DNA of 64,000 nt from an uncultured Clostridia bacterium (GTDB taxonomy: Bacteria > Bacillota > Clostridia > UMGS1883). The number at the start of each line of letters is the position of its first letter. The first letter of the stretch is position 1. A program made the translations under genes and the position numbers. Under the pieces are notes generated by a model. The model was given only the letters and a program-made list of their open reading frames with translations. It was not told where the DNA came from and made no database searches. Location: assembly GCA_947589005.1 (NCBI GenBank), contig CANPZO010000002.1, forward strand, positions 7,713-71,712. The letters run 5' to 3'. Shown piece by piece: positions 374-52,515 of the stretch.

Positions 374-541
374 TATTATTTCCCTCCTGTGTACCGCTCA
401 TGTTTACCCGACCTGATTGGCGGATATTTTTTCAGATCGTCTCTGTACTGCTCTCTTGTTTTAAAAAAGCTGCACCGCCCTGCCGCGCAAAACATATTCA
501 TCAATACGCTGCACTCTCCGTTTTTGTATGCGAAACAAGTC

Positions 542-751
542 TTATTTACCATAGTTTTCATCTTCCTTTTCAATTAATTTTACATAGCTCGCCACACGAA
601 GCCCCTCGGCTTCGGCGGCGGCAAAGAGTTTTTTCATTACGCGCCCGCGCCTTGCGGTCAGCTCCTTGCGATAGGCCGCCTTGACAGCCTTATATGCCGT
701 GAGGTCAAGATAACCGCTGGCGTTTCGCTTTTCACTGTCCACATGGCTCAC
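542..751 (-). CDS. Small hypothetical protein (69 aa), mobile-element associated
   Basis: ORF overlaps the next gene by 4 bp (ATGA coupling). Basic, helical composition. Confidence 0.4.
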   Translation of the reverse strand: MSHVDSEKRNASGYLDLTAYKAVKAAYRKELTARRGRVMKKLFAAAEAEGLRVASYVKLIEKEDENYGK

Positions 752-1005
752 CTCTCAGGCTCGCGCTTTTTCTTAAACTGCTCGAGGAATTCTATTTCAC
801 TCATTGTGCGGTCGCAGAAATCCTTTTTTGCGCTGAGTTCGGAGGCGAAGTAATGGCCGTGATTGTAGCTGTCACCATTCACGCAGGACCATGTGACGTA
901 TGGGGATGGAGTGCTTACGCCTTTCTTTTCACCGAGGACGATCTCCTTTTGTCCGACGGTGATACTGCTCGTTATAACGTAACCGGCGTTAGTTCTCTGT
1001 TCCAT
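748..1005 (-). CDS. Hypothetical protein (85 aa)
   Basis: ORF in an operon-like string with neighbouring minus-strand genes. Start overlaps the stop of an upstream small ORF. Confidence 0.4.
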   Translation of the reverse strand: MEQRTNAGYVITSSITVGQKEIVLGEKKGVSTPSPYVTWSCVNGDSYNHGHYFASELSAKKDFCDRTMSEIEFLEQFKKKREPER

Positions 1006-1156
1006 CGGCTTTTTCCTCCTCTTTTGTTTCGTCCGAAGCGGGCGAATGTCTGTCCATTTCGTCGTCGGCCTGACTTGCTACGACGAGGCAGCAATATACC
1101 GCGATAATTATGCCCGCGACCACAAATGCGGCTGCTGCTACAAGTGCGATTTTCAT
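989..1156 (-). CDS. Small predicted membrane protein (about 55 aa, MKIALVAAAAFVVAGIIIAVYCCLVV...)
   Basis: Not in the ORF track (below cutoff). ATG at complement 1156 with upstream GAAAGG. Hydrophobic helix then acidic tail. Stop overlaps the start of the 748..1005 gene. Confidence 0.35.
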   Translation of the reverse strand: MKIALVAAAAFVVAGIIIAVYCCLVVASQADDEMDRHSPASDETKEEEKADGTEN

Positions 1157-1164
1157 TGTGTACA

Positions 1165-2019
1165 CTACCTTTCTTTATCTATTTTTCTTTTTCTTGACCA
1201 GTTTTCAAGGAGCTTTATGACGGTTTCCTCCATCTGCTCCGGTGTATATCCCCTTGGGAAATATTTTCGGATTTTGTCCGTTTTGAACGTCAACTTGGCC
1301 TTCTCGGGCTTTTCCTCCCGCATTATGGCCTCTATGACGGCGGGCGAGAGCTTGTCCTCCTGATAAAACTGCCGTATTCGCCCGGCTTGTGAAATGGAAG
1401 GAGCGGTGCAGTCCTGCTCGATGACCTTCAAAACCTCCGATTGAGCTTTTGAGCCGAGGTATGACAGCTCAACCGCTGCGCTGAGGGCAATTTCCTTCCT
1501 GTCCACCATGTCCAGCAGGGGAGTTATGAGGTTGGTGAGGCGTATGTAGCGCTGGATTTGCTTGACGCTCTCACCTGAAATTTCCGATAAAACCTCATTT
1601 GAACGTCGCTTTTCTAACTTCGGGCCAATTTGACCCGAAGTTAAATCTGTCCTTTTTCCCTGACGTTTCATAGCTTCCAGCTTCATTTGATATGCAAAGG
1701 CTTTTTCGCTGAGAAGGATATTTTCCCTTTGCAAGTTGCTGTCCACAAGCAATATAACCGCCGCGTCGTCGTCAAGCTGGCGCACCATGACCGGCGCTTC
1801 CTTTATTCCTGCAATCTCACAGGCTTTGACACGTCTGTGGCCGGACAGTATCTCATACCCGCCGCCCTCTCTTGGCCGGGCAATGATGGGGGACAGCACC
1901 CCGCTCTGGCGTATGCTTTCCGCAAGCTCGTCCATACCTTCATCAAGCTGCACCTTAAAAGGCTGCTCAGAAAAGGGATACAGCTCCGACAGTGGGACGG
2001 TGCGGAGTTCTTCGTCCAC
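1165..2019 (-). CDS. ParB/Spo0J-like nuclease-domain protein (plasmid or ICE partition or processing)
   Basis: ParB N-terminal domain motifs: 'GHRRVKACEIAGIKEAPVMVR' and 'ILLVDSNLQRENI'. Stop/start overlaps the upstream gene. Confidence 0.7.
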   Translation of the reverse strand: MDEELRTVPLSELYPFSEQPFKVQLDEGMDELAESIRQSGVLSPIIARPREGGGYEILSGHRRVKACEIAGIKEAPVMVRQLDDDAAVILLVDSNLQRENILLSEKAFAYQMKLEAMKRQGKRTDLTSGQIGPKLEKRRSNEVLSEISGESVKQIQRYIRLTNLITPLLDMVDRKEIALSAAVELSYLGSKAQSEVLKVIEQDCTAPSISQAGRIRQFYQEDKLSPAVIEAIMREEKPEKAKLTFKTDKIRKYFPRGYTPEQMEETVIKLLENWSRKRKIDKER

Positions 2020-2885
2020 TAAGTATCACTCCCTCCGTACAAATCAAAAGCCACCGCGTTCTGGAGCTGGGCTTCAGCGGTGGCAGGTACATTAAACAGC
2101 GACGTTATGAGGTAGGCTTTCATGTTGCGGATTTTCTGGGTGTTTTTCTCAAACTGGAGCAAAAAGCTCTCAATGCCGGCATAGTCTATATCACGGAAGC
2201 GCTTCCGCACAAGCTCTGTGCTGTATGTGTAGCCCTCTATGACATAGCTTGACCGCTCCACGGTCAGGACTTCGGCCATGATGTTGACTATTTCATCGAC
2301 TACGGCCCGGTCATGTGTGGCCGTGAGGCTTTCATAGCAGATGTTCTGCCGGACAAATTCGGCGTTCTGTTCGTATTTATCCACCGACCTATCCGCTGCG
2401 GGATTGATAGATGGGTAATTAATACGCTCAGTATTTGATTTGTTTTTATTTGATTTATCTTTTATTAATTGCGTTGGATTTTCCAACGTAGGTTTTGCCT
2501 GCGTTGGCTTTACCAACATTGGATTTTCCAACGTAGGCTTTTCCAACATAGGTTTCTCCAACACAGGCTCGTCCAATGCAGGCTCTCTCGGCTCAGGCTT
2601 TTCGTGTATCACATACTCTGCGTCGGTGAGCTGGCCTTTTTCATTCCTGCGGCGGCTGCGCTCGATGTATCCGGCCGCCTCCAGCTCCTTTATGGAAACG
2701 CGGATAGCGTCGATGCCCTCCCTGCTGATGATGGCTAACCCTCTCAGGGTGTAGTCCCACTCCTCCGGCAGACTGAGCATGACGGACATCAACCCCTTTG
2801 ACCTGAGCGACAGCCTCTTGTCCCGCAGATGACAGTTTGACATCACGGTAAAGTCCTTGTTTTTTTCTACCCGGAATACTGACAT
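2019..2885 (-). CDS. Putative replication initiator / DnaD- or RepA_N-like winged-helix protein with Pro/Glu-rich pentapeptide repeat region
   Basis: N-terminus 'LSLRSKGLMSVMLSLPEEWDYTLRGLA...IKELEAAGYIERSRRR' resembles Firmicutes RepA_N / replisome-organiser wHTH. Central in-frame repeats (EKPMLEKPTLENPMLVKPTQ...) are encoded by the 15-bp tandem DNA repeats. Confidence 0.5.
   Translation of the reverse strand: MSVFRVEKNKDFTVMSNCHLRDKRLSLRSKGLMSVMLSLPEEWDYTLRGLAIISREGIDAIRVSIKELEAAGYIERSRRRNEKGQLTDAEYVIHEKPEPREPALDEPVLEKPMLEKPTLENPMLVKPTQAKPTLENPTQLIKDKSNKNKSNTERINYPSINPAADRSVDKYEQNAEFVRQNICYESLTATHDRAVVDEIVNIMAEVLTVERSSYVIEGYTYSTELVRKRFRDIDYAGIESFLLQFEKNTQKIRNMKAYLITSLFNVPATAEAQLQNAVAFDLYGGSDT
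2466..2600. repeat. About nine tandem 15-bp repeats (ttggattttccaacg-like units) inside the initiator-like gene
   Basis: Direct reading of the sequence. The units encode pentapeptide repeats on the minus strand. Confidence 0.8.
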
Positions 2886-2967
2886 GGTGTTCCTCCTTTC
2901 TTGATTTTTTGTATATGAAAAAGGCGTGTATCTTTGGTGATACGCGCCTTAACAACAAAATTGGGCA

Positions 2968-2996
2968 TTGACAAAGTTGTATAGTTATGATATAAT
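2968..2996 (+). promoter_or_regulatory. Consensus sigma-A promoter (TTGACA-17-TATAAT)
   Basis: TTGACA at 2968-2973, a 17-nt spacer, TATAAT at 2991-2996. Confidence 0.7.
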
Positions 2997-3002
2997 CTAC
3001 TA

Positions 3003-3188
3003 TACACAGGTAATATGTGTGAGCTTAATATGGCTTGTGTATATTTTATGGCAAGAAGTATTTGAACAAGCGCCTATGTCCCTAAAAGCTGAAATTATTC
3101 CTAAAAAATCGGCATACTTCTCCGCCAACAAAACCCCCACTTGGGGGCGAAAAATCCCAGAGCTTAAAGGGCTTTGGGATTTTTTGTG
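3003..3188 (+). ncRNA. Candidate small RNA (about 185 nt) from the consensus promoter to a two-hairpin intrinsic terminator
   Basis: A perfect promoter is followed about 140 nt later by hairpins 'cccccacttggggg' and 'aaaatcccagagcttaaagggctttgggatttttt' plus a T-run. No credible ORF. The overlapping 79-aa ORF starts inside the promoter. Confidence 0.35.
3134..3186 (+). terminator. Rho-independent terminator (double hairpin plus T-tract)
   Basis: Stem-loops at 3134-3147 and 3151-3185 followed by TTTTTT. Confidence 0.7.
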
Positions 3189-3313
3189 CTTTGTTGCGGT
3201 ATTGTAGTAGGGAAAAACTGATGTCGTTATAGAAATTTTCAATAGCTCATGCACCAAAGCTCCTTTCAGATATATATCATTACTTTGATATTATCAGAAA
3301 GGAGTTTTTTATT

Positions 3314-3682
3314 ATGAAAAAAATCTGGACAAAAGCGCAGTGCCATGAGCTTATGGGGCTTCCCCCTCCCGTTCATGCGAAGATTGATGAAACCGTCGCG
3401 ATACTCAACTTTTACTATGGCGAGAACAGAGATGTTGACAAAAATCTCGGCGGATACGTTCTACTGATAGAGAGTGAGAAAGATTTTGAAAGCCTTAAAG
3501 CTATCTTTCATGAGGAGATAGAAAACCTGACCGCAGAATATGTGGATATAATCCAATGCGAAAATACATCCGCATATATATGCGCTCAAATTATGCTCTC
3601 TGACGATTATTCCGTCGTATTGCTTATTCCCCGTCCCATAACGCCAAACTCGCTGTTAAAACAGGCAAATTCACGCTCATAA
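3314..3682 (+). CDS. Hypothetical protein (122 aa), paralog of 9442..9810
   Basis: RBS GAAAGGAG 8 nt upstream. No recognisable family. Duplicated within the window. Confidence 0.6.
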   Translation: MKKIWTKAQCHELMGLPPPVHAKIDETVAILNFYYGENRDVDKNLGGYVLLIESEKDFESLKAIFHEEIENLTAEYVDIIQCENTSAYICAQIMLSDDYSVVLLIPRPITPNSLLKQANSRS

Positions 3683-3906
3683 GCACACATTATCCGGCTA
3701 TGGTCTATCATTGGGCCATAGCCTTTTTTATTTGCCCTGAAAATACATCTGCACATGGGGACGCGAAATAAGGTCATATTACGATGACTTTTTCCCTCGC
3801 CTGTATTTTGGCGCCGGGCACTGAAAACATGACAAAAACAAACCCCGGAGAGCGAGGGAACTCTCCGGGTAAATTTATATTAAAGGGGATTTACACCCAC
3901 GTATTT

Positions 3907-6900
3907 TTACACTATTTCCACTGTCTCAGCTTCGCCGAGGGGCGTCATTGCTCGCAGCGATCTCCACACAAAGACCTTGGCCCGCTTAATATCCGCGGAA
4001 AGCGGAATATCAATGGTGTAGGACGCGCTGCCGTCACATTCCTGACTTCTCACCGACAAAAGTTTGCCATTGCCATCATATGCCGTCACAATTACAAACG
4101 CATTTTCGAGAGGTTCTGAGGCATCGACATAAAACCTGTAGCTGGACGAGAGCTTTTTATATGTAGTGGCCGTGAGCTTTTCACCGGGTTTGTCGCCAAC
4201 ATCGCCATCATCAAGGCCCACGTCAGGCTCCTGACCGGTGGTGAAAGACTTTATGTCGCCAAATTCAGTCATCTGGAACATATATGTTGTCTCCGAAAGC
4301 AGTCCGTCAATACGCACGCTGTAATCTCCGCCGCCGGCCTCGACCTCGGTCAAAATGACGTTTTCCGGCTCGGAGGCCATCCAATAGCGGATGTATCTCA
4401 CTATGCCGTCGCCCTGACCGGATACGCTGCCGCTCAGTGTCGCGTACCAACTGTCCACATCTTCCGCGTCATTGGTGACCGCCGTAACCTTTGTGCTGGT
4501 GCCGGCCACGTCTAAGGTAATAACGGTGTCCTTGTCGATGATGAAGCTATTGCCGCCCAGCTCCTCGCCGTTGACGTAAATCGCGTCGACCGTATACTCG
4601 GCGGCGGCTTCGGCGTTTACGCGGATTTCCGCGCCGTCAAGAGCTTTAATTCCGCTTGAACCGTCCGCCATCAGGAACACCGCTGAGGCGATCTCCGCCG
4701 GATCGGCGTCCACGTTTTCAAGGGAGCCGGCGGCGTTGGCCGTGGCCTGAACGGTGGCTCTGTATTCGGGAGTTATTTCTCCAAAGGTGGCGTACACGCT
4801 GCTGTCGCCGCTGACCTCGAAGGTGGAGCCGACGGTCTCGACGCCGTTGACGTAAATTTTGCCCAACACATAGCCCTGGTCAGGAACGGCGGAGACGGTG
4901 ACGATCTCGCCGTCCACGGCTTGGGACTTGTCCACGGTCACCGTACCGTGCTCCACCGCGCCCACGCTTATCTCGTTAAGGCAGTCGGTGTACAGGGTGG
5001 GGAGCTGACCCTCTCTTATCACCCATACGGCGTCGGGATTTTCTTGGAGATAGTCCATGGACTGGTAAGGCGTACCGAAAACTCTCTGCTGGAAGGACGC
5101 GCTCTTAAGCTGAGACATGGGTCGCTTGGTCTCGCTTGTTTCAACCTTTTTGCCGCTCGTCGTCAGCTTGAGACCGTCGTTGACATGGTTGTTTTGATAT
5201 GTGGCTGATAAATTGATTTCGCCAACAATATCGCCAACTTTAGAGCCGGTGTTATTGGAAATTATTTCATTAACGATAACAACAACGTCGTTTACGACGC
5301 CACTGCCTGACGCACCGCCAATATTTGCTTTACAATTAGCGGATATTACGCCGTTTACTTTTGCGAAACATTTTTTGCAGTCACCTTTGCCTGTCAAACC
5401 GCCAATTTTAATATTTGCTTTCTCATTTTTATTCCCATTGCATACAATTGCACCACCTTGATATTGGCTATCTTCGATGATTCGAGACATATTCCCCGCT
5501 ATGCCGCCAACATACATATCCTTTGCTCGGTTAGAGTTTACGCAAATGCTGTCATCGTCTGATGTAAACTTTACTGTACAGCGAAGGATGGAATCCGTAC
5601 ATATGCCAACAAGCCCGCCAATATTAAACGTGCTGTATGAGGTGTCGTTATAATATAGTTCTGTAGGATTACTGGTCAATTGTGCGGCGGATACTGTACA
5701 ATTGTATATCATTCCTTCTGAAGCACCGACCATACCGCCCACACTCGTATATTGACCAACAGTGCCGGAAATGGTCATAAGACTATCTTGGGACGTTACT
5801 TCGCAGTCAGTTAGATTGCCATCTATGCATCCTGACAATTGTCCTACTGTTAAATTTCCCCAGTTAACATCTCGATCAAGTGAAATAAAACATGTGTATG
5901 CCGAGCAATTTATGATGTCTCCTGTAATATCACCCAAAAGGCAGCCGAGACAACCCTCATCAGCAAATGAAACTCCTGATACGTTTACATATGTAGCTTT
6001 GCAACTGTCAATGTTTAAACATAATCCGCGTCCTAAAAGTGCTCCCACATATCCGTCACCATATCTATTGTCCATAGTAAAGCCATGGATATCTCCTGAC
6101 ACAGCTACATTTTTCAGCTCGCCAAATTTACCTGATTCCCAGTATGATTTTTTCCCTTTCGCATACCCAAAAATACCAACATAGCCTTCATAAGCCTTGG
6201 TGATCCTCAAATCCGAAATAGTATAGCCGTTGCCGTCAAACGAGCCGCGAAAATACTGATAATCGTTGCCGTAAAGACCGATGGGCACCCATTCGGTGTT
6301 GCCGAGGCTGATGTTGCCGGTAAGCTCGTAGTATTCATACTCCGGATCCGAGGTTTGGGAATTTACCCTTTGTGCAAGATAGGCGAGCTCGGCGGCGCTG
6401 GATATCTGATAGGGGTCGTCCTTGGTGCCGCTGCCGCCGGCAAAGGCCGTGGCCGTGCCGCCGCTCCACGAGCTGTCGCCCCAGACCGCGTAAAGGGTGG
6501 CGTCGTCCTCAAAGGTGTAGTCCATGCCGAGGCGGTATTCCGGCGCGGAAGCGTCGTAGCTCTTCGCCCAGCCACGAAGATAGCAGCCGTCCTTTATGGC
6601 CGAATTGGGCATACGCATGGTGTCGCCGTAGGTCAACTTCTGGTCCTGGAGCTCGCCCTTGCCGCCGTTGAGGTCAAAGTGTATGTCAAAGACCTTTGGT
6701 TCCCATACGGCGTAGAGGGTTATGTTTGTGTTTCTGTTATATCTGCCGCCGGCCTCGTATGAAGCGTAAGCCGCGGTTCGGCTTGAGGCCCAGCCCAGAA
6801 AATTATAGCCCTTTTTTGTGGGCACGGTACGGGACAGGGTCAGGGGCTGATCCTGTATTTTGGACTGCTGGGCGGGCGCGCCAGTGCCGCCGTTGGCGTC

Positions 6901-7965
6901 ATACTGCACGGTATAGGTGTTGTATATCCGGAAATCGTCACAGCTTACGGTCTTTTCCTGACCGGTATTAGTGTTGCGGACAATAAGGCTCGCGGAGTAG
7001 CTGCCGGCGGAGAGGCCGTTTACGCGGTGCTCGATGGCGTTCATGCTGTAGGTGGCGTAAAGGCCGCCGTTTTGGTAAAGCTGGAGGGTATAGTCCGTGG
7101 CGTTGGAAGCGTTGCCGCGCTTGAAGGTGGCGCTCCCGCCGGTTTTGTCAACCGTTCTTGTGAGAACGATATTGCCGATGGGATAGCACGAGCGGCAGCT
7201 TGTCACGCTTCGGGTGGAGCCGGTGTACTCCTTAGCCCCGCAGGACGTACACGTTTTGTACTCCTGATGCGGGTGGCCGCTTTCTAATTGAGTGATCCAG
7301 CTGTGGGTATGGGCGGCGGGTTTCTGGGCCGGTGAAGTCAGATTGCAGCTTCCGCTCGAAATGTACCAGTATTGGTTCAGGTTGCCTATTCGTTGGTCTT
7401 GCGTATCTCCGGATAAATAAGCCTGTGTAAGTTTAATACGGCCTGAGGGAATGCCAGAGGCTGGGTCAGCACAATAGACCGTATCCGAAGAAGCGTCGTA
7501 GTCAGTCGCCAAAACAGCATGGCGGCGTTTGGAGGGGTAGCTGTCATTAGGATACATATAGATAACTACGCCTTCCGCATGCTCACTGAGCAAAGAAATG
7601 AGCTTGTTTTTCTTATCCGCCGAAGAACCGGAAAACATACCGTATTTTACGGTCATTCCGGCATAAGAAAAACTAAGTCTTTGTCCCGCACCGGATACCC
7701 ATCCATAAGGCTCAACCGCGCTTTCTGTTATAGAATCCCAGTTTTCGTTGCCGCTTAAAAGCGCGTTCCTGCGAAGCATCATTGTTACAGAGGCCAAGGT
7801 ACACCTGCCTTTGCCCGACTGCTTTTTAAACACCGACGGATCATTTGCTGATGGAAGCGCCATAGTTTCGGCATCCCCTGTGCTCGCAAACGAAGCCGCC
7901 GGCACAAAGCTCAGAACCATTGCCATACAGACAAGCATGGCTAAAAGTTTTTTCCACTTTATCAT
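3907..7965 (-). CDS. Large secreted surface protein with several domain-like segments
   Basis: Start is the MIKWKK ATG with AAGGAGG RBS (the upstream ATG lacks an RBS). Signal peptide present. Segments: C39-like papain-fold peptidase motif 'GKGRCTLASVTMMLR'; two 'YNFLGW...YAVWEP' Listeria-Bacteroides repeats; a long Gly/Asn-rich beta-helix region; FN3-like; C-terminal recurrent 'YDGNGKLL...VFVWRSLRAMTPL' module. Confidence 0.75.
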   Translation of the reverse strand: MIKWKKLLAMLVCMAMVLSFVPAASFASTGDAETMALPSANDPSVFKKQSGKGRCTLASVTMMLRRNALLSGNENWDSITESAVEPYGWVSGAGQRLSFSYAGMTVKYGMFSGSSADKKNKLISLLSEHAEGVVIYMYPNDSYPSKRRHAVLATDYDASSDTVYCADPASGIPSGRIKLTQAYLSGDTQDQRIGNLNQYWYISSGSCNLTSPAQKPAAHTHSWITQLESGHPHQEYKTCTSCGAKEYTGSTRSVTSCRSCYPIGNIVLTRTVDKTGGSATFKRGNASNATDYTLQLYQNGGLYATYSMNAIEHRVNGLSAGSYSASLIVRNTNTGQEKTVSCDDFRIYNTYTVQYDANGGTGAPAQQSKIQDQPLTLSRTVPTKKGYNFLGWASSRTAAYASYEAGGRYNRNTNITLYAVWEPKVFDIHFDLNGGKGELQDQKLTYGDTMRMPNSAIKDGCYLRGWAKSYDASAPEYRLGMDYTFEDDATLYAVWGDSSWSGGTATAFAGGSGTKDDPYQISSAAELAYLAQRVNSQTSDPEYEYYELTGNISLGNTEWVPIGLYGNDYQYFRGSFDGNGYTISDLRITKAYEGYVGIFGYAKGKKSYWESGKFGELKNVAVSGDIHGFTMDNRYGDGYVGALLGRGLCLNIDSCKATYVNVSGVSFADEGCLGCLLGDITGDIINCSAYTCFISLDRDVNWGNLTVGQLSGCIDGNLTDCEVTSQDSLMTISGTVGQYTSVGGMVGASEGMIYNCTVSAAQLTSNPTELYYNDTSYSTFNIGGLVGICTDSILRCTVKFTSDDDSICVNSNRAKDMYVGGIAGNMSRIIEDSQYQGGAIVCNGNKNEKANIKIGGLTGKGDCKKCFAKVNGVISANCKANIGGASGSGVVNDVVVIVNEIISNNTGSKVGDIVGEINLSATYQNNHVNDGLKLTTSGKKVETSETKRPMSQLKSASFQQRVFGTPYQSMDYLQENPDAVWVIREGQLPTLYTDCLNEISVGAVEHGTVTVDKSQAVDGEIVTVSAVPDQGYVLGKIYVNGVETVGSTFEVSGDSSVYATFGEITPEYRATVQATANAAGSLENVDADPAEIASAVFLMADGSSGIKALDGAEIRVNAEAAAEYTVDAIYVNGEELGGNSFIIDKDTVITLDVAGTSTKVTAVTNDAEDVDSWYATLSGSVSGQGDGIVRYIRYWMASEPENVILTEVEAGGGDYSVRIDGLLSETTYMFQMTEFGDIKSFTTGQEPDVGLDDGDVGDKPGEKLTATTYKKLSSSYRFYVDASEPLENAFVIVTAYDGNGKLLSVRSQECDGSASYTIDIPLSADIKRAKVFVWRSLRAMTPLGEAETVEIV

Positions 7966-8084
7966 GTATATTCCTCCTTGTTTTTTTCTCATTATAACAT
8001 ACTATCTTTAAAAAAGCAATACTATCTCTATAAATTTATAAAAAATGTCTTTAAAAAGGATATAATATATTTGGTGATGATATA

Positions 8085-8414
8085 ATGAATTTGAAAAACA
8101 TAGGAAAAAACGTCAAGCAAATACGGAAGTCACGTAACTTGACCCAAGAAAAGCTGGCCGAGGCTATTGATATTTCCACCGTTCATATGTCACACATTGA
8201 AACAGGCAGCGTCTGCATGAGCCTCGACTGCCTGCTTTACCTGTGTACGGTTCTTGGAACCACGCCAAACGACATTTTGTTAGGCGAATTTGACCTGCCG
8301 GTCGAGGGGCAGGTGCGCATATCTGACGAAAAAATAAAAAGGCTCACCGCCGACGAGCTTTTGTTTATAGGCCGCGTCGCCGATTTGTTGAATGAAATTA
8401 AGCTGAACAGATGA
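8085..8414 (+). CDS. Xre/Cro-C1 family HTH transcriptional regulator
   Basis: HTH_3 motif 'IRKSRNLTQEKLAEAIDISTVHMSHIETG'. Confidence 0.8.
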   Translation: MNLKNIGKNVKQIRKSRNLTQEKLAEAIDISTVHMSHIETGSVCMSLDCLLYLCTVLGTTPNDILLGEFDLPVEGQVRISDEKIKRLTADELLFIGRVADLLNEIKLNR

Positions 8415-8692
8415 GGCCCGATATCCCTTTTGAAAACTCTATGCAACTGTTTACCGGCAAAATCAACGAGTTGACAGAGGAAAACGAGCGGCTTAACCGA
8501 GAAATAACTGAGAAAAAAGCCTCACTACCCGCCGCCCCTCTATCAACAGATGAAATCATGGCCTTAAAGCAAGACTTCATCACCTATATGCTTGACGAGA
8601 ACAATCTCCCGATTTGTAAAAAATGCCTTCAATCACTGATTGAGGGCATTTTTATTTATGAGGATGAAGTCAAGATAGTTTTCAACATTTAA
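8411..8692 (+). CDS. Hypothetical coiled-coil protein (93 aa)
   Basis: ATGA overlap with the upstream Xre gene. C-terminus '...CKKCLQSLIEGIFIYEDEVKIVFNI' faintly recalls a recombinase C-terminus (weak). Confidence 0.4.
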   Translation: MRPDIPFENSMQLFTGKINELTEENERLNREITEKKASLPAAPLSTDEIMALKQDFITYMLDENNLPICKKCLQSLIEGIFIYEDEVKIVFNI

Positions 8693-8699
8693 ACCTACA

Positions 8700-9231
8700 T
8701 CTGTCCCCATTTTGAGCCTATCCTCACCATAAGAGGATAGGCTCCTTTCGGGCATGATTTGTAAAATTCAAATATACATCTACCTATGAATTTAAGATAT
8801 CAGCTATATGCAGATGAGCAGATGTTTTCATCTGCATATCATGCGCACTCTTTCGAAGATAGTTTTTACCAATAACTTACTGCACTTTATAAATCCATGC
8901 TCCCCCGCTCCCCCTTGTTTAATCTATCACGCATGCAGGGATAGAACGATTTTTCATGTGCATATATGGTTATACAGCTTTAGTTAAAGAGATTATTATT
9001 TTCTATAAGGTCTGTGTAATATTATCAACAGAAGATGAGACAAGTACATATATCATCTGAAGATAGCTATTATATATTTTCATAGCAAGATGAATTATGT
9101 AACTCTATCATCTGCGGATAGATTTTTTTAAACCTCATCTTTCCATGATAACTTCATTTTCACTAAAAATTTTTTAAAGTTATTTTTATCAGGTACTTAC
9201 TGCACTTTCGTCTCCAAGGTGGGGAATTTGA
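8700..9231. repeat. AT-rich non-coding region with multiple short inverted repeats around a 'catctg' core and 14-bp direct repeats 'acttactgcacttt' (8873 and 9195)
   Basis: For example 'atgcagatga...tcatctgcat', 'agatga...tcatct', 'ctatcatctgcggatag'. The direct repeats are exact. Confidence 0.6.
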
Positions 9232-9258
9232 CGGTATACGCACCTTCTCCGCCAACAA

Positions 9259-9312
9259 AACCCCCACTTGAGGGCGAAAAATCCCAAAGCTTAAAGGGCT
9301 TTGGGATTTTTT
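9259..9312 (+). terminator. Rho-independent terminator (copy of 3134..3186)
   Basis: 'cccccacttgaggg' then 'aaaaatcccaaagcttaaagggctttgggattttttt'. Confidence 0.65.
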
Positions 9313-9441
9313 TGTGTCTTATTGCGGTATTGTAGTAGGGGAAATGTGATGTTGTTATAGGATTTTTCAATCGCTCATGCACCAAAGCTCCTTTCAGATA
9401 TATATCATTACTTTGATATTATCAGAAAGGAGTTTTTTATT

Positions 9442-9810
9442 ATGAAAAAAATCTGGACAAAAGCGCAGTGCCATGAGCTTATGGGGCTTCCGCCTCCTGT
9501 TCATGTTAAGATTAATGAAACTGTCGCAATACTCAATTTTTACTATGGCGAGAACAGGGACGTTGACAAAAATCTCGGCGGATACGTTCTGTTGATAGAG
9601 AGCGAAAATAATTTTGAAAGCCTTAAAGCTATCTTTCATGAGGAGATAGAAAACCTGACCGCAGAATATGTGGATATAATCTCATGCGAAAACACGTCCG
9701 CATATGTATGCGCTCAAATTGTGCTCTCTGACGATTATTCCGTCGTAATGCTTATTCCCCGTCCAATAACGCCAAACTCGCTGTTAGAACAGGCAAATTC
9801 AAGCTCATAG
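9442..9810 (+). CDS. Hypothetical protein (122 aa), paralog of 3314..3682
   Basis: About 93% amino-acid identity to the copy A gene, with the same RBS context. Confidence 0.6.
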   Translation: MKKIWTKAQCHELMGLPPPVHVKINETVAILNFYYGENRDVDKNLGGYVLLIESENNFESLKAIFHEEIENLTAEYVDIISCENTSAYVCAQIVLSDDYSVVMLIPRPITPNSLLEQANSSS

Positions 9811-10084
9811 GTAATGCCATAAGCGGTTGATGAAACATATATTATCATTTTGATATATACCAGCGGCCGACTGTGCAGGAACATAGTCCATCGCTCCTAT
9901 TCTACTTAAGAGAGACTTGTATTTTATAAAAAGCTGTGTTATTATACATATGATTTTACTCATCAATAAACTACATCTCAGATCTTGGTGTAAATAAAAA
10001 AATTATATAAAAACCGAACCTTTTACGCTGATTTTGTCACTATATAATGTCAGTACTGAAAAAATTATGAAAGTGGGATGCCAT

Positions 10085-12571
10085 ATGAAACGGTACAGTG
10101 ACCGGAGCGATGGCGAGCTTGTCTACATGACTCTAAGCGGTGACACAGATGCTTATGGAGAGCTGGTTGCCCGGCACAAAAATACAGTCTACAATGCGGC
10201 TTATGCTGTTGTGCATGAGCATTACGCGGCGGAGGACATCGCCCAAGACAGCTTTGTGGACGGCTTTATGCAGCTTCACCGGCTTTACGATCCGAACAAG
10301 TTTCCGGGCTGGATATATGCTGTCGCCCGGCGCAAGGCATTGCATTACGTCTCTCGCCGGCGGACGCATGAGGACATAGACAATGTTCCGGCAGTCAGCG
10401 CCGGCAGCGACCCTCTTGCCCGTATACTGAAAGAGGAAAGAATAAACGAAGTCAGAGCCGCTGTTGACGCCCTTTCTGAGAAAAACAGAACCGTAGCGGA
10501 GTTATTCTATTTTAAGAATGTTAATGTCAGCCGGATATCCGCTTTATTGGCTCTGCCGGAGGGAACTGTTAAGCGCAGGCTTCATGAGGCAAGAAAAAAA
10601 CTTAAAGAGAGGTTGGGATATATGCACGAAATGAGAAAAGAGGTCTCTGCCGATTTTGAAAAGATAGTGCAGAGGAAGATCAAGGAGTTGTCCGATTACG
10701 TGAGGCTCCACGGTTATGACGAGGATTATGATAAGCTGATCGGGGAGCTGGTGGACTTTGTTGTAACCCTGCCGGACTCCGAAGAAAAATGGTCGGCATC
10801 AGAAAATGTGGCTGAAACGCTTAGAGATATGTTTTTCTACCAATTCCGCGGGATGAATGATAATCATGAGGAGGCTATAAAATTCTTTGATACTGTGGCA
10901 GTTCCAAAAATGGAGAGCCTGAAAAATAACACCGGCATGGGTGATATTCTGTTTTGGCGTGGAGTGTGCAAATTTGCGCTTCGCCAAACAAATGAGGCCC
11001 GGGCCGACTTTACGGAGTCCCTGCGGCACTCAAAACCCTCCGATATTATGCACGCTTTGGCGGTTTCGGCTGTCAGGACGGTTGATCTGCTGAAAGAAAA
11101 TGCCGAGGACAACATACTGGGATATCAAATCACAGCCGAGGGCTACCGTTATGAGGGAGGAAAGCTCATTTTCCGAAGCCAGCCGGGAATTATCTCCGGC
11201 CGCCAGCACGAGAGCCTTAGTCATGTTTCCTTGGGATATTTCCTGTCGCGCTGTGATGACATTATGTTTGATACAGAAATGAAGGTGGGAGACATTCGCA
11301 CGAGCGACGGCGGAAGGATAAGTCTCGCGCTTGTTGCCCTTGACGAAAGCGTTACCGTTCAGGCGGGGACCTTTGAGTGTATGCACCTGATTTTGACTGA
11401 GGCGGGAGAGGTTACAGATGTCTGGTACTCCGATGGCATTGGCCTTGTTCGCGCAAGGTTCAATGGTCAGGAAAATGAGGAGGTTTACGAGCTGTCGGAG
11501 TATGAAATCAAGGGCGGCGAGGGGTATTGGCCTTTCTGTGAGGGCAACCGCTGGCGGTATGAAAACCCCGGTGTGCCCGACTACATTTATTATCGGCTGG
11601 AATATGAGGTGGACTGGACTGACGGTGCCTCCGCCAACCTATCCTACGTTACACCCATTGCATATAAGAAGAATTACGATTTGGAATATAGCATGGACAG
11701 CGATATGTATATTGATAAATGTTATCTCTGCTGCGACAACTGGGAGATAGATGAGGCTATTGAAGCTCTACGGCTGGCCGTTAGGGAAAACACATCACAG
11801 CAAGCGGCCTTGGCGGCTCTGGGCGGCATCGAGTATCTCGAATGGTTCAGAGATCTCAACAACAAGAATTACCGCTTCTGCCCGTCGAGCTACGCCGTCA
11901 GCAAAATCGGAAGGCTCGGCGACAAGATAGTTTATTCAGAGGGCGGAGTATATAGGTTTGGGCCATACCGTCTCGGTACCCGTTTTGAGGAAAACCGTAT
12001 TTTCGGTTATAAGCCCTTGCGATATCTGGAAATACTCTGTGACTGCGTCTGGGATGATAGCTGGGTTGACGGATACAGAAGCGAATGGAAATATGATGAC
12101 GCGGATGTTACGCTAACCGTGAATAAGGCGGGAGAAATTACCGTTCCGGCGGGTACATTTGCAGACTGCTTGAAGGTGATCATTACCGCCGAAGCTTCGG
12201 GTCTCAGCGGCGGCTGCTACTTTGACGATTACTCTCACACCTGGCGGGGAAAAAAGGAATACTGGTTCGCGCCCGGAGTGGGACTTGTACGCTTTGATTG
12301 TGAATGGGGTGATGTGCTGGACGCCTCTGCGCAATTGGTAAATTACCGTAATCCTGCCGGAGAATATAGATATTTCCCCTTGGCGCTGGGCTGCGAATGG
12401 GAGTATGACGAAGTGAATATGTCTCGCGAGGGCTACTGCGCTAAACGAATCATGAAAGTTATGTGCGGCATGAACAAACAATACCTGATGCAAGACATAA
12501 GCAAGGGCGTATTCCTTGGCACAGAAGAAGAGTATGAGGAATTTAAGAGAAAAATCTCGAAAAACAATTAA
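10085..12571 (+). CDS. ECF-type sigma-70 family protein fused to a long (about 650 aa) C-terminal extension with an internally duplicated domain
   Basis: Sigma region 2 ('YNAAYAVVHEHYAAEDIAQDSFVDGFMQL...PGWIYAVARRKALHY') and region 4 HTH ('LSEKNRTVAELFYFKNVNVSRISALLALPEGTVKRRLHEARKKL'). The C-terminus shows twice '...AGTF..C....IT.A.......YW.APGVGLVRF...' with no TM segment. The start is taken at MKRYS (the upstream ATG lacks an RBS). Confidence 0.7.
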   Translation: MKRYSDRSDGELVYMTLSGDTDAYGELVARHKNTVYNAAYAVVHEHYAAEDIAQDSFVDGFMQLHRLYDPNKFPGWIYAVARRKALHYVSRRRTHEDIDNVPAVSAGSDPLARILKEERINEVRAAVDALSEKNRTVAELFYFKNVNVSRISALLALPEGTVKRRLHEARKKLKERLGYMHEMRKEVSADFEKIVQRKIKELSDYVRLHGYDEDYDKLIGELVDFVVTLPDSEEKWSASENVAETLRDMFFYQFRGMNDNHEEAIKFFDTVAVPKMESLKNNTGMGDILFWRGVCKFALRQTNEARADFTESLRHSKPSDIMHALAVSAVRTVDLLKENAEDNILGYQITAEGYRYEGGKLIFRSQPGIISGRQHESLSHVSLGYFLSRCDDIMFDTEMKVGDIRTSDGGRISLALVALDESVTVQAGTFECMHLILTEAGEVTDVWYSDGIGLVRARFNGQENEEVYELSEYEIKGGEGYWPFCEGNRWRYENPGVPDYIYYRLEYEVDWTDGASANLSYVTPIAYKKNYDLEYSMDSDMYIDKCYLCCDNWEIDEAIEALRLAVRENTSQQAALAALGGIEYLEWFRDLNNKNYRFCPSSYAVSKIGRLGDKIVYSEGGVYRFGPYRLGTRFEENRIFGYKPLRYLEILCDCVWDDSWVDGYRSEWKYDDADVTLTVNKAGEITVPAGTFADCLKVIITAEASGLSGGCYFDDYSHTWRGKKEYWFAPGVGLVRFDCEWGDVLDASAQLVNYRNPAGEYRYFPLALGCEWEYDEVNMSREGYCAKRIMKVMCGMNKQYLMQDISKGVFLGTEEEYEEFKRKISKNN

Positions 12572-12605
12572 CGTTTAAGTATCCATTGGTCCTCCGTCTG
12601 ACATA

Positions 12606-12640
12606 ATGAAAAACGGCTGTCGGTGACAGCCGTTTTCTCT
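12606..12640 (+). terminator. Intrinsic terminator after the sigma-fusion gene
   Basis: 'aaaacggctgtcggtgacagccgttttctcttt'. Confidence 0.6.
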
Positions 12641-13242
12641 TTAGTTCTTGCAAAGTTCTTAACGCCGGTGTATTGAACGAGTTTCATGCAATATTAATCT
12701 TTTCGTGAATTATATTTTTTACAACAATGCAATTTAAAAAAGAGAACATTTCAAAATTTGTTAATGGGGTAGGTGAATATAATTTTGACTGTAAATACAA
12801 AATGGCGGTTGTGTCCCATTTGTCTATCTTAAGATCTACGCCCATATACAAGTTATCATCTCTGTAGAAAATGGGGGGCGGGCTCTAACTATACCAACAG
12901 CAAAGTCTTTTGGCTCAGAAAGGAGATGCCAAGCTGTTGGAGCCATATAAAATCCCATGTATCCTGCGCATAGGAAATCAGGACGAAAACGGATCGGCGG
13001 GAACAGCCGTTCCGATGATGAAAAATTGACGTTTATGCAAAAATATGGCTGGCTGATGGAGGACACGGATGTGAGGTTTTACAGCTCATTTTTTAAACAG
13101 CAGCGTAAAGAAACGCAAAAATAGGATTTAAATGAAAATGCAGTGCTTAGGCACATGGTGAACAAAGTCGTATATATACACTTTATGGTAAATATAAATG
13201 GTTAATATTTTGCGCAATTTCCTATCATCGTATTTTATACAC

Positions 13243-47448: not shown

Positions 47449-47964
47449 TTAGAAATCCGTTTTCAGCCTTACCAGGCGGCCCAGCACCCGAACCCGACCG
47501 GCGAAGGACTCCCTTGACATTATGGCCTCGTTAAGGCCGTCGCTCAGGCACACGCGGCCGCCGTCGCATCGGAATTGGGCGAACCGCTCCCCGCCGTCCG
47601 CGGCCAGGAGCAGAATGTCCCCGTCCTTCGGCGTCCGGCACGGCCTTACCAGGGCGGAGGCTCCGGGCGTCAGCCCTTGACCGGCCATATTTCCGTCCTT
47701 TATCTCAATCACCAGGCCGTCCATCGCCGAGGGCAGCTCGGCCGCCTCGAAGGGCAGCTTGTCCGCCGCCATCACCGCGCCCTCGGCGGGCAGAAGTGCC
47801 AGCGCCGCAATAAGGCGGGACACGGCCCGCTGTGAGGGCGGAACGTAGCCGTTGGTGAAATTGTCAAAGCCGGCGGGACTCACGCCCATTATTTCGGCCA
47901 GCTCCCTGTCGCTCAGGTCCACGCTGTCCTTGATTTTCTCGATATAGGCCGCGAACGTGTTCAT
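47449..47964 (-). CDS. HTH plus S24(LexA)-like C-terminal domain repressor with apparently substituted catalytic dyad
   Basis: N-terminal HTH 'LSDRELAEIMGVSPAG'. The C-terminus aligns to the LexA/S24 fold, but the GxSM position reads 'DGNMAG' and the Lys position appears to be Arg. Confidence 0.5.
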   Translation of the reverse strand: MNTFAAYIEKIKDSVDLSDRELAEIMGVSPAGFDNFTNGYVPPSQRAVSRLIAALALLPAEGAVMAADKLPFEAAELPSAMDGLVIEIKDGNMAGQGLTPGASALVRPCRTPKDGDILLLAADGGERFAQFRCDGGRVCLSDGLNEAIMSRESFAGRVRVLGRLVRLKTDF

Positions 47965-47968
47965 CCTC

Positions 47969-48298
47969 TCACCTCCGGCTTTCCGCGTAAAGGAGGATGA
48001 GCTCCTCCACGAACTTCCGCTGCTTTTCGTCCATGTCCGCGTACAGGCGCTCCAACGGGCCGCCGCCGCTCTGCCCGAACAAAATGTAGTCGGCGCTTGT
48101 TTCCAGCGTCCGGCACAGCTCTATCAGGGTGCCTACCGACAGGCCGCAGACGCCGCGCTCGATGTTGCTTATGTTTTGACAGTCCATATCCGTTTTTTCG
48201 GCCACATATTCCTGGGTATAACCCTTCGCTCTGCGCGCCGCCTTAACTCGGGCGCCCACCGCCCGGTAATCATAGCCCTGATGCTTCAAAGCAGCCAC
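47969..48298 (-). CDS. Xre-family HTH transcriptional regulator
   Basis: 'VGARVKAARRAKGYTQEYVAEKTDMDCQNISNIERG'. Confidence 0.8.
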   Translation of the reverse strand: MAALKHQGYDYRAVGARVKAARRAKGYTQEYVAEKTDMDCQNISNIERGVCGLSVGTLIELCRTLETSADYILFGQSGGGPLERLYADMDEKQRKFVEELILLYAESRR

Positions 48299-49691: not shown

Positions 49692-52307
49692 TCACTCCTC
49701 ATTGGGGATATCTATTCCCGCCCTCGGCACGCTCAAATTCGCTTCCTTTATAAGGTCGCGGATAGCCGCCTCCGCCATGGATATCTCGGCGTGGAGCTCG
49801 GCGGCGGACAGTCGGAGGGCGCCGCCGCCGAGGATTATGACCTGCTCAAGATTGTCGGAGGTGGCCACCCGTACCCGATGGTTCTTCACCAGCCGGTGGG
49901 TCACCTTTTCGATATACATATCGGCGGTCTCGGCCTCCTTGGTATAGACCACGTCCACGCCGTCGATACGCTCGACCTCCCTGCGCTCGCCCTTGACCCT
50001 GTAGGCGTCAAAGACCGCTATAACCTCCTTGCCGGAAAAGCCCCTGTAGTTGGAGAGCGTTCCGATAAGGGCTTCTCGGGCAAGCTCGAGGCTTTCCTCC
50101 GCCAGCTCCTTAAGCTCGTCCCAGGCAAAAATGATATTGTAGCCGTCCACCAGCAGGTATTCCGGTCCGGAGGGCGGCTTTTTTGCGCGCGCTTCACCGT
50201 GGGAGGCGGGCTCGCGCCGGGTCTCCATGGAGTAGCGGTCATGCTTTATGGGGCCGTAGGTGCGCTCGAATATCTTTATAAGCTCCTTGTCCTCGGCCGC
50301 CCGGGCGACGTAGCCGGCGGCCATTTCACGTACCGTGGGGCGCGGCCTGTCTCCTTCGCCGCCGAAGGAAAAGCCGCTCTCGGTGTGCATATGGTCCCGA
50401 ACCTGATACCAGGGCACCAGAAAGCCCGCCCCGCCGCCGCAGAACACCGAATCGGCGGTGTTGTCAAGGTCGGCGTCACAGTCATAGCCTATCCCGGCTA
50501 TGACCTCATCGGCGTTGTGGCAGGGGCGGTAGCCCCCGGGCAGACAGCCGAGCCGTCCCCGGCCGCCGGTATAGCCGGCCACCTGCGTGTGATAGCCGCC
50601 AATCTCCGACACGGGGGCTTTGCCGGTAATCACCGCCGACGCGGGCGACTGCTCCGGTTGAGAAAATTCCGCCCCCATAAGGCGCAAATCGTTCATGGCC
50701 CGTCCTATGGCCTCGGGCGGTATTTCCAGCCGGAAGTCGTACCAAGGCTCCAGCAGCACCGACTTTGCGGAGCGCAGTCCCTGTCTTACCGCGCGGTAGG
50801 TGGCCTGGCGGAAGTCGCCGCCCTCGGTGTGCTTTTTGTGGGCGCGGCCGCCCACCACCGTTATGCGCATATCCGTAATCGGCGAGCCGGTCAGCACGCC
50901 TATATGCTGCTTTTCACGCAGATGGGACAAAATCAGGCGCTGCCAGTTTTTGTCAAGTATATCCTCGCCGCAGTCGGCGGCGAAGCTGAGCCCGCTGCCG
51001 GGGCGGGTCGGCTCCAGCACCAGATGCACCTCGGCATAGTGGCGCAGAGGCTCGTAATGGCCCACGCCCTCCACCGGAGCGGCGATGGTCTCCTTGTAGG
51101 CGATGCTGCCTGGGCCGAAGGCTATGTCGAGGCCAAAGCGTTCGCGCACCAGCCGCTGCAGCACCTCCAGCTGGACCGTGCCCATGAGCCTTACCCGTAT
51201 TTCCCGATGCCCCTCGTCCCAGGCTATGTGGAGCTGGGGGTCCTCGGCCTCAAGCTGGCGGAGCTTTTGCAGGGCCGCCATCGGGTCCGTGCCGGCGGGC
51301 AGCTCCACCCGGTAGCTTAGCACGGGCTCGAGCACTGGGGGCGAGGCCGTCCTTTCAAAGCCCAGCCCCTCCCCTGCGGAGGCGGCGGTGAGGCCGGTGA
51401 CGGCGCAGACGTCGCCCGCCTCCGCCCTGTCGGTGGAGCGGAACTTCGCCCCTGAATATATGCGTATCTGATTTACTTTTTCCGAAATTTCTCCCTCGTC
51501 CACGGTATCTCTCGCGCGGAGGGCGCCGCCGGTGAGCTTCATGTGGGTCAGGCGTTCGCCCCTTTCGTCCTCGGATATCTTAAAGACCCTGGCCCCGAAC
51601 TCCCGGCCATACGAGTGCTGTACGGTCCGTTTGTCCAGCATATCCGCGAACCTGTCCACGCCCTGCATTTTCAGGGCGGAGCCGAAAAGACAGGGGAATA
51701 CCCGCCGCTTTTTAATGGCGTCGGCAATGAGGCCGTCGGGAGCCTTTTCGCCCTCGAAAAATTTTTCGGCGATCTTGTCGTCAAAGACGGCAAGGGCCTC
51801 CTGCGTCTCATCGCTTTCAACGGCGGTAAAGTCGGTAAAGCCCTTGCCGAGGCGGTTGTTCAGCTCGGCCGTCAGCTCGGCGCGGGTGCGGGCGCAGATG
51901 TCCATTTTATTCACGAAAACAAAGACCGGAACCCTGTACCTTTCCAGCAGCCGCCAAAGGGTCTCGGTGTGGCTCTGCACCCCGTCGGGGCCGCTGACAA
52001 CCAGTACGGCGTAGTCCAGAACATTCAGAACCCTTTCCGTCTCGGCGGAAAAATCCACATGGCCGGGAGTGTCAAGGAGGGTAAGCTCCGTGTCCCCCAG
52101 CCGCAGCACCGCCTGCTTTGAGAATATGGTGATGCCCTTTTCTTTTTCTATGGCGTGAGTGTCCAGAAAGGCGTCCCCGTGGTCCACCCGTCCGGTCTTT
52201 CTTATTTCTCCCGCCAGATATAGCAGTCCCTCGGAAAGGGTGGTTTTGCCCGCGTCCACGTGGGCCAGTATGCCGACGGCGATTTTTTTCATGCGCTCAA
52301 ATCCGTT
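49692..52307 (-). CDS. Ribosomal-protection (TetM/TetO)-like translational GTPase fused to a C-terminal YacP/Rae1-type NYN ribonuclease domain
   Basis: N-terminal 'ILAHVDAGKTTLSEGLLY...DTPGHVDF...NKMD' G-domain. 'RVFKISEDERGERLTHMKLTGGALRARDTV' parallels TetM. The last about 230 aa have 'EYLLVDGYNIIFAW...VIAVFDAY...VVYTKEAETADMYIE', diagnostic of the NYN/YacP family. Single uninterrupted ORF. Confidence 0.75.
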   Translation of the reverse strand, partial: NGFERMKKIAVGILAHVDAGKTTLSEGLLYLAGEIRKTGRVDHGDAFLDTHAIEKEKGITIFSKQAVLRLGDTELTLLDTPGHVDFSAETERVLNVLDYAVLVVSGPDGVQSHTETLWRLLERYRVPVFVFVNKMDICARTRAELTAELNNRLGKGFTDFTAVESDETQEALAVFDDKIAEKFFEGEKAPDGLIADAIKKRRVFPCLFGSALKMQGVDRFADMLDKRTVQHSYGREFGARVFKISEDERGERLTHMKLTGGALRARDTVDEGEISEKVNQIRIYSGAKFRSTDRAEAGDVCAVTGLTAASAGEGLGFERTASPPVLEPVLSYRVELPAGTDPMAALQKLRQLEAEDPQLHIAWDEGHREIRVRLMGTVQLEVLQRLVRERFGLDIAFGPGSIAYKETIAAPVEGVGHYEPLRHYAEVHLVLEPTRPGSGLSFAADCGEDILDKNWQRLILSHLREKQHIGVLTGSPITDMRITVVGGRAHKKHTEGGDFRQATYRAVRQGLRSAKSVLLEPWYDFRLEIPPEAIGRAMNDLRLMGAEFSQPEQSPASAVITGKAPVSEIGGYHTQVAGYTGGRGRLGCLPGGYRPCHNADEVIAGIGYDCDADLDNTADSVFCGGGAGFLVPWYQVRDHMHTESGFSFGGEGDRPRPTVREMAAGYVARAAEDKELIKIFERTYGPIKHDRYSMETRREPASHGEARAKKPPSGPEYLLVDGYNIIFAWDELKELAEESLELAREALIGTLSNYRGFSGKEVIAVFDAYRVKGERREVERIDGVDVVYTKEAETADMYIEKVTHRLVKNHRVRVATSDNLEQVIILGGGALRLSAAELHAEISMAEAAIRDLIKEANLSVPRAGIDIPNEE

Positions 52308-52386
52308 CATAAAATTTATTGAGATAATTGTACCACAGAGGGGTAAAAATTGCAATAAAATTTTCTAAAAATATGAACAAAAGCCC

Positions 52387-52428: not shown

Positions 52429-52515
52429 GCCGATGTGATGGAATTGGTAGACGTAGTGGACTCAAAATCCACCGGTAGCGATACCGTGCCGGTTCGAGTC
52501 CGGCCATCGGCACCA
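52429..52515 (+). tRNA. tRNA-Leu (anticodon CAA)
   Basis: Cloverleaf readable: acceptor GCCGATG/CATCGGC plus CCA, anticodon loop CUCAAAA, long variable arm, T-arm GGTTCGAGTCC. Confidence 0.85.

Follow-up and report, generated by a model that had tools for sequence, protein, structure and literature searches.

The DNA analysed here, a window of 64,000 nucleotides from contig CANPZO010000002.1 of an uncultured Clostridia bacterium (assembly GCA_947589005.1), carries on its minus strand a gene whose product joins a ribosomal GTPase of the elongation factor G (EF-G)/Tet type to a Rae1-type NYN nuclease domain. That both belong to one polypeptide, as an earlier note made from the letters of this DNA had claimed, is supported by the open reading frame (ORF), by Pfam and by the match to the crystal structure of YacP/Rae1 from B. 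subtilis (PDB 5MQ8). The gene is a further member of an already described, very common and uncharacterised fusion family: Atkinson 2015 (BMC Genomics, PMC4342817) reported Tet-subfamily proteins with a YacP-like NYN domain in ten clostridial species and proposed to test them for ribonuclease (RNase) activity, and Matelska et al. 2017 (Nucleic Acids Research, NAR, PMC5499597) named 'TetM-NYN_YacP fusion proteins' in some Clostridia, leaving their function open. The fusions of these two in-silico studies have the identical architecture, come from the same bacterial class and show nothing different in kind, so that the words 'previously undescribed' in the earlier note have to be withdrawn. New with respect to the reports of 2015 and 2017 are a family far larger than ten species, a C-terminal mini-domain, a tether of constrained length, sister proteins in Lactobacillaceae that lack the NYN domain, and the absence of the TetM loop.

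In the ORF list of the window, a single minus-strand frame extends from 52355 to 49692 with neither an internal stop codon nor a frameshift; the coding sequence is not split, in agreement with the single polypeptide that had been postulated. Three in-frame start candidates are available, TTG at 52355 and ATG at 52310 and 52292. Because the homologues begin with MK+h.hGILAHVD and have lengths of 845-881 aa, ATG 52292 is the likely start, giving a predicted protein of 866 aa; position 52307, where the gene had previously been made to begin, holds no start codon. The next gene on the 3' side encodes a Na/Ca exchanger and is convergent, and therefore the fusion gene is monocistronic, as had been described, with a promoter-like site of its own (Table 1). 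The remaining neighbours in the window are a tRNA-Leu gene and a PGA_cap gene. Long ORFs, up to 509 aa, also run antisense to the fusion gene (e.g. 49791-51320 on the plus strand), and at a related GC-rich locus (L019) crude longest-ORF calling chose an 889-aa antisense ORF over the real gene.

Domain architecture and conservation

All domain matches reported from the Pfam search of the window protein lie above the gathering scores, and their positions are compiled in Table 1.

Table 1. Features of the fusion gene and of its product, in window coordinates.
Feature	Residues	Position	Strand	Basis and remarks
Fusion coding sequence	1-866	49692..52292	-	866 aa, likely start; stop codon 49692-49694; ORF list, N-termini and lengths of homologues
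Sigma-70-type promoter-like site		52327..52355	-	TTGCAA-17-TACAAT with TG upstream; ~35 nt before ATG 52292; consensus match only
G domain	4-221	51630..52283	-	Pfam GTP_EFTU, 3e-48
EF-G domain II	232-309	51366..51599	-	Pfam EF-G_D2; beta-barrel in the AlphaFold2 model
EF-G domain III	322-393	51114..51329	-	Pfam EFG_III
EF-G domain IV	395-510	50763..51110	-	Pfam EFG_IV, 3.5e-16
EF-G domain V	512-593	50514..50759	-	Pfam EFG_C, 1e-14
C-terminal mini-domain	594-640	50373..50513	-	Family-specific; helix, beta-hairpin, helix; AlphaFold2 and conservation
Tether	641-711	50160..50372	-	Predicted disordered (AlphaFold2)
Rae1/YacP-type NYN domain	712-853	49734..50159	-	Pfam NYN_YacP, 5e-48

The matches to GTP_EFTU and to EF-G domains II-V bear out that the N-terminal part is a GTPase of the EF-G type. 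Its G domain carries the motifs AHVDAGKTT (G1), GITI (switch I), DTPGH (G3), NKMD (G4) and SALK (G5), with a much reduced G' insertion. For the first 700 residues, matches to chains of EF-G and TetM reach about 1e-63 to 1e-65, and a Foldseek comparison of the protein model with the PDB returned EF-G structures at E about 1e-50. This model was built with AlphaFold2 on 67 family members and reaches a mean predicted local distance difference test score (pLDDT) of 78.9 and a predicted template modelling score (pTM) of 0.59. It displays a confident five-domain EF-G-like body, the mini-domain at residues 594-634 and a folded NYN domain at residues 712-853, the last reached through a tether that stays below a pLDDT of 50 at residues 642-706; for the block of the mini-domain, mean pLDDT is 78-90 over residues 591-630 and 68 over residues 631-640.

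At the C-terminus, the NYN_YacP profile (PF05991) matches residues 713-851 with 163.6 bits, against a gathering cut-off of 24.6, in support of the proposed NYN/YacP assignment. The region is smaller than the 230 aa first ascribed to it and comprises only ~155 residues (712-866), the residues ahead of it forming the mini-domain and the tether. The last 166 residues of the protein match the Rae1 crystal structure 5MQ8 with E=1e-28, whereby D716, D762, D791 and D813 align with Rae1 D7, D53, D81 and D104; the double exchange D7N D81N is the published catalytic (inactive) mutant of Rae1 (PMC10351889). Compared with B. subtilis Rae1 and with the YacP orthologue of C. difficile, the fused NYN domains of the window protein, of Monoglobus and of Agathobacter reach 41-48% identity. 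Rae1 and the C. difficile orthologue share only 35% with each other, and therefore the domain is conserved at the level of an orthologue.

The P-loop, the switch-I threonine, DTPGH, NKxD and SAL as well as the four aspartates of the NYN domain are invariant in the 67 aligned members. When the set is enlarged to 195 members, 194 of them have G1, all have G3 and 180 have G4, and each of the four NYN motifs was found in 192-195. Judged from these alignments, both catalytic centres are conserved and under selection. The window protein also carries all of the family motifs HYEPLRHY, KHTEGGDFR, SVFC and ELxxIFExTYG, which occur in 183-194 of the 195 members.

The mini-domain stands in the place of the short C-terminal helix of TetM. 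It features two invariant cysteines, C591 and C618, and two nearly invariant histidines, H592 and H636; a profile of mini-domain plus linker gave chance-level matches only when compared with Pfam and with PDB sequences. The adjoining tether contains the motif (D/E)ELxxIFExTYGxIxR at residues ~668-684, the part (D/E)ELxxIFExTYG being present in 183 of the 195 members, and ends in a basic stretch ahead of the NYN domain. From SVFC in the mini-domain to DGYN at the start of the NYN domain, the spacing among the 195 members is 89-135 aa, with a median of 97 and most values between 89 and 100; the tether of ~70 residues is flexible, yet constrained in length. The notion that the linker motif is a relocated copy of the C-terminal tail of Rae1 was rejected, because Lachnospiraceae fusions have both the linker motif and the tail.

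The family, its relatives and its genomic setting

A protein search gave matches in at least 8000 protein clusters, the best 120 of which all share the architecture, and hundreds of such fusion proteins have 59-77% identity to that of the window. A look-up of public assemblies for the exact window protein yielded no match. A scan of species, with one genome per species, placed the fusion in at least 600 species genomes. The best 80 of these are all full-length matches, and their hosts belong to Oscillospiraceae, Ruminococcaceae, Lachnospiraceae, Acutalibacteraceae, relatives of Monoglobus, Herbinix and others. Of the 80 species loci fetched, 72 or more show a full-length fusion (>780 aa) with a tether of constrained length.

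The earlier note had counted the GTPase module among the TetM/TetO proteins, on the strength of hallmark motifs of ribosomal protection proteins. The generic motifs of translational GTPases are indeed present, but the TetM-specific motif is absent. Identity to Tet(W), Tet(M) and Tet(O) amounts to 28-30%. The best NCBIfam match, to the generic tet_protect model (NF012153), scores 383 bits against a cut-off of 775, while the Tet(M/W/O/S) model gives 246 bits against 1100 and the Tet(M) model 202 against 1420; the EF-G models of NCBIfam reach 273-297 bits against cut-offs of 583-659, TIGR00484 accounting for 273 against 659. In the alignment with Tet(M) and Tet(O), the position of the TetM domain-IV loop YSPVSTPADFR is occupied by KHTEGGDFRQATYRA; the TetM loop III motif Y-S-P-V-S-T-P is not present, the family-invariant AHKKHTEGGDFR being found instead, and the second domain-IV loop is GHYEPLRHYAEV, again family-invariant. 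The tip loops GHYEPLRHYAEV and KHTEGGDFRQATYRA are thus family-specific and occur in 194 of the 195 members. In TetM-ribosome structures, it is loop III of domain IV that dislodges tetracycline. The role of this domain-IV loop was treated by Atkinson 2015 (PMC4342817). With the low identity, the score below the curated cut-off and the missing TetM loop, membership in the TetM/TetO group could not be upheld.

Structurally, the protein shares with Tet(M) and Tet(O) (PDB 3J9Y, 3J25, 4V6V) the five-domain EF-G-like layout, the reduced G' insertion and intact G motifs, and aligns collinearly with them over residues 1-580; it differs in the loops of domain IV, in the C-terminus and in that its gene does not reside on mobile elements. 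With EF-G it has in common the fold, the GTPase motifs and a His-containing domain-IV loop of similar pattern, whereas its G' subdomain is mostly missing (26 versus about 70 residues between the aligned blocks) and C-terminal modules are added. Closer relatives, with 48% identity, are Lactobacillaceae proteins of 640-660 aa, which possess the mini-domain and lack the NYN domain; in the L. salivarius relative, the sequence shared with the window protein runs to about residue 638. Because these NYN-less relatives share the mini-domain and stop there, the GTPase module is, on sequence grounds, assigned to a Firmicute subfamily of its own inside the Tet-like branch, and is not a true ribosomal protection protein. 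On L. salivarius pMP118 (L003, 3529-5920), the NYN-less gene adjoins rpsN (S14) and a gene for a small 'putative metal homeostasis protein'. The rpsN adjacency was not seen in three other Lactobacillaceae, and no conserved neighbours were found there.

With B. subtilis Rae1 (PDB 5MQ8/5MQ9), the window NYN_YacP domain shares 42% identity and all four acidic residues. Rae1 is, on the other hand, a single domain of 170 aa, encoded in the cluster cysS-mrnC-rlmB-rae1-sigH, while its counterpart in the window is the C-terminal module of an 866-aa GTPase whose gene stands alone, apart from rlmB and sigH. C. difficile and Listeria are among the other bacteria in which rae1 lies between rlmB and sigH. 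Monoglobus pectinilyticus carries the fusion, and both its rlmB locus and its sigH locus are without rae1, as is the rlmB locus of Vescimonas (Oscillospiraceae), and a tblastn search with the NYN domain returned the fusion as the sole match in the Monoglobus records. The data are consistent with the fusion replacing standalone Rae1. In lineages such as Monoglobus and Oscillospiraceae, it may be the only Rae1 homologue and may perform the housekeeping task of Rae1 with a ribosome-targeting module already built in.

Apparent standalone NYN proteins, 52-68% identical to the fused domain, were rejected as candidates, being fragments or the products of genes that a linker frameshift or N runs in the scaffold had split. 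Public assemblies often break the fusion gene inside its low-complexity linker in this manner, as at loci L092-L096; the broken genes can be taken for standalone ones, as they appear under names like 'NYN domain-containing protein, partial' or 'elongation factor G, partial'. The split cases L095 and L096 contain scaffold N runs, an apparent linker frameshift is assigned to L092 and L093 because their reading frame no longer includes the conserved linker motif, and L094 stems from a fragmented assembly, probably of low quality.

ORF calling and all-against-all clustering of neighbour families at the 80 species loci revealed no conserved operon partner: 13 of the 80 loci is the most that any neighbour family reaches, and the recurrent ones are generic transporters in varying positions. 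This agrees with the earlier statement that the gene has no obvious antitoxin partner. A trmO gene follows directly on the 3' side in six of the 80 loci (L006-L085), and one abundant gut species has the gene order acpS-fusion-trmO, with pheST and the genes for L10/L12 close by. At loci L088-L091 (12585-13259), the gene for TrmO, a tRNA methyltransferase, lies ~10 nt downstream of the fusion gene. This adjacency is confined to a subset of Ruminococcaceae and Oscillospiraceae loci, where the two genes may form an operon.

The GC content at third codon positions (GC3) of the fusion gene is 0.76, like that of its neighbours, and with its core-gene-like spread and context the gene is native to the chromosome. 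A tRNA-Leu(CAA) gene indeed lies beside it, at 52429-52515 on the plus strand, as had been noted. Its proposed value as an integration landmark is not borne out: none of 37 other loci checked shows the adjacency, which is common only to the closest relative (L101, 77% identity), where the same PGA_cap and Cthe_2159 genes are found, i.e. ordinary synteny. In both cases the tRNA gene is placed between the PGA_cap and the fusion gene (L101: 7853-7939), in the window on the strand opposite to the fusion gene and in L101 on the same strand; as the flanks are kept, the opposite orientation points to a local inversion within conserved synteny.

An association of the family with phages or plasmids was considered and rejected. 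Two 'plasmid' matches are non-mobilizable, chromosome-like records, and the 'phage' record examined, an 'UNVERIFIED Bacteriophage sp.' entry (L100, MT835563.1) with a homologue of 57% identity, holds cellular genes only. These encode NAD(P)H-hydrate dehydratase, an enzyme of the enolase superfamily, a citrate transporter and a peptidoglycan-binding protein. Ten large ORFs of this record were scanned, with no match to a phage family, and the entry is probably a bacterial contig.

Possible function and rival explanations

Rae1 cuts mRNA in a way that depends on translation, 12 nt upstream of the A-site codon of the stalled ribosome, at its tail end (PMC12407103), and according to a 2026 preprint it makes substrates for transfer-messenger RNA (tmRNA) from collided ribosomes (PMC13622287). 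The premise of the earlier note, that Rae1 cleaves in the A site, is therefore outdated. For the fusion, a link to translation is expected too, and the reading favoured here, with modest confidence, is that of a housekeeping, GTP-gated and ribosome-docked Rae1 that would cut mRNA on stalled or collided ribosomes. Like EF-G and TetM, the GTP-bound factor would dock at the GTPase-associated centre of the ribosome. Domain IV with its own conserved tip would probe the A site of the 30S subunit in a stalled ribosome or in a ribosome belonging to a collided pair. In complexes of EF-G and TetM with the ribosome, the A site is filled by domain IV. Because domain IV would occupy this site and Rae1 cuts outside it, the tethered NYN domain would be expected to cut the mRNA elsewhere than in the decoding centre; if Rae1 is taken as the guide, the cut would lie at the stalled ribosome's trailing edge or between two ribosomes that have collided. 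The truncated mRNA product would then be resolved by tmRNA, which would rescue the ribosome, and GTP hydrolysis would release the factor.

Several points weigh against a ribosome-docked Rae1. That the protein binds ribosomes, hydrolyses GTP and cleaves RNA, and which substrate it acts on, is deduced from homology throughout, and a literature search found no experimental work on any member of the fusion family. The clade of the window protein is devoid of the C-terminal tail of standalone Rae1, which the Lachnospiraceae fusions keep, and in the AlphaFold2 model the inter-domain geometry is unreliable (pTM 0.59), with the position of the NYN domain undefined. The proposed replacement of standalone Rae1 rests on two partial genomes rather than on a census. 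Furthermore, the NYN-less relatives in Lactobacillaceae show that the GTPase module also serves some purpose without the nuclease domain.

By analogy only, the fusion may be compared with MutS2 of B. subtilis and SmrB of E. coli, ribosome-binding factors that have, or are made up of, a nuclease-type domain and act on collided ribosomes (PMC12407103, PMC13622287); their folds are unrelated (SMR domain, ABC-type ATPase), and no homology to the fusion was found. A more far-reaching proposal, tentative and rather doubtful as it stands, would see in the protein a single-polypeptide, GTP-gated 'no-go decay' factor, with an EF-G-like body that would sense a stalled or collided ribosome via the A site, with the tether as a ruler that would place the nuclease on the mRNA at a set distance and with standalone Rae1 replaced in most gut Clostridia. 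If this were true, Rosetta-stone logic would have the NYN-less Lactobacillaceae GTPases cooperate with free Rae1, and such cooperation would reveal the recruitment of Rae1 to ribosomes.

It could instead be rRNA, near the factor-binding site or the decoding centre, or ribosome-bound tRNA that the NYN domain cuts after delivery by the GTPase, in the service of ribosome maturation, of quality control, or of inactivation and turnover. The tether would let the nuclease reach rRNA surfaces, and the presence of trmO directly downstream, in six of the 80 loci and in L088-L091, fits such a target. However, Rae1 as the only characterised NYN_YacP member cuts mRNA translation-dependently, the fused domain resembles Rae1 as much as orthologues resemble each other, the trmO link holds in a minority of loci, and rRNA-processing neighbours are not conserved, which makes an rRNA or tRNA target unlikely. 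The idea of a ribosomal protection protein for tetracycline resistance, to which the nuclease would add, was raised by Atkinson 2015 (PMC4342817). It could draw on tet_protect as the top NCBIfam match (383 bits), on the one-stretch alignment with TetM over residues 1-580 and on the many relatives named 'TetM/TetW/TetO/TetS family' in databases. It is nevertheless very unlikely for a protein which falls this far short of the cut-off of 775, and further still of those of the specific Tet models, at 28-30% identity, in which the YSPVSTPADFR loop is replaced by the invariant KHTEGGDFRQATYRA and the C-terminal helix of TetM is replaced as well, and whose gene is chromosomal in hundreds of species rather than carried by mobile elements.

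Ribosome-dependent mRNA nucleases such as RelE are classic toxins. This background, together with a monocistronic gene adjoining a tRNA gene, speaks for the toxin or abortive-infection effector, cutting RNA on ribosomes when triggered, that the earlier note had offered among its possible roles. That role was abandoned as highly improbable: the PADLOC defence models gave no match, an antitoxin-like or other conserved neighbour is missing from the 80 loci, the composition is native with GC3 like that of the neighbours, and the gene is present in single copy in core, housekeeping-type chromosomal contexts in at least 600 species, with a tRNA adjacency that is not conserved and with no real phage or mobilizable plasmid found to carry it. 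The least credible alternative holds that the modules act independently, or that two adjacent genes were joined into a spurious fusion by annotation or assembly. In some entries (L092-L096), a gene for the GTPase does precede one for the NYN domain, but these are the cases traced above to N runs, an apparent frameshift and a fragmented assembly, while the ORF in the window is uninterrupted and at least 72 of the 80 species loci hold the full-length fusion.

The interest of a ribosome-docked Rae1 derives from the recent recognition of Rae1 as the nuclease that turns collided ribosomes into tmRNA-rescue substrates in Gram-positives. A natural fusion of Rae1 with an EF-G-type factor, found in hundreds of species dominant in the human and animal gut, suggests delivery via the factor-binding site of the ribosome as one route by which Rae1 could find such ribosomes, and it provides a tractable protein for structural work. 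Moreover, the labels 'TetM/TetW/TetO/TetS family tetracycline resistance protein' and 'elongation factor G' are in wide use for genes of this family. Because the protein is without the defining features of ribosomal protection, such labels may inflate resistome counts.

Other features of the window

About 1.4 kb past the 3' end of the fusion gene, and separated from it by the convergent transporter gene, two tandem minus-strand genes occupy 47449-48298. They encode a 109-aa helix-turn-helix (HTH) protein of the XRE type and a 171-aa protein without a Pfam match (GC3 0.81). HTH genes near some fusions were mentioned by Matelska et al. 2017 (PMC5499597). At the other end of the window, positions 1-13000 form a block of lower GC3 (about 0.4-0.6, versus 0.7-0.8 elsewhere). 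This block holds genes for ParB_N, DUF6017 and XRE HTH proteins, for a 1361-aa protein with Listeria-Bacteroides repeats and for an 845-aa protein with an N-terminal sigma-70 r2/r4 region, as well as a 300-nt direct repeat (3130-3429 and 9258-9557, 86% identical), and it resembles the remains of a mobile element that had integrated.

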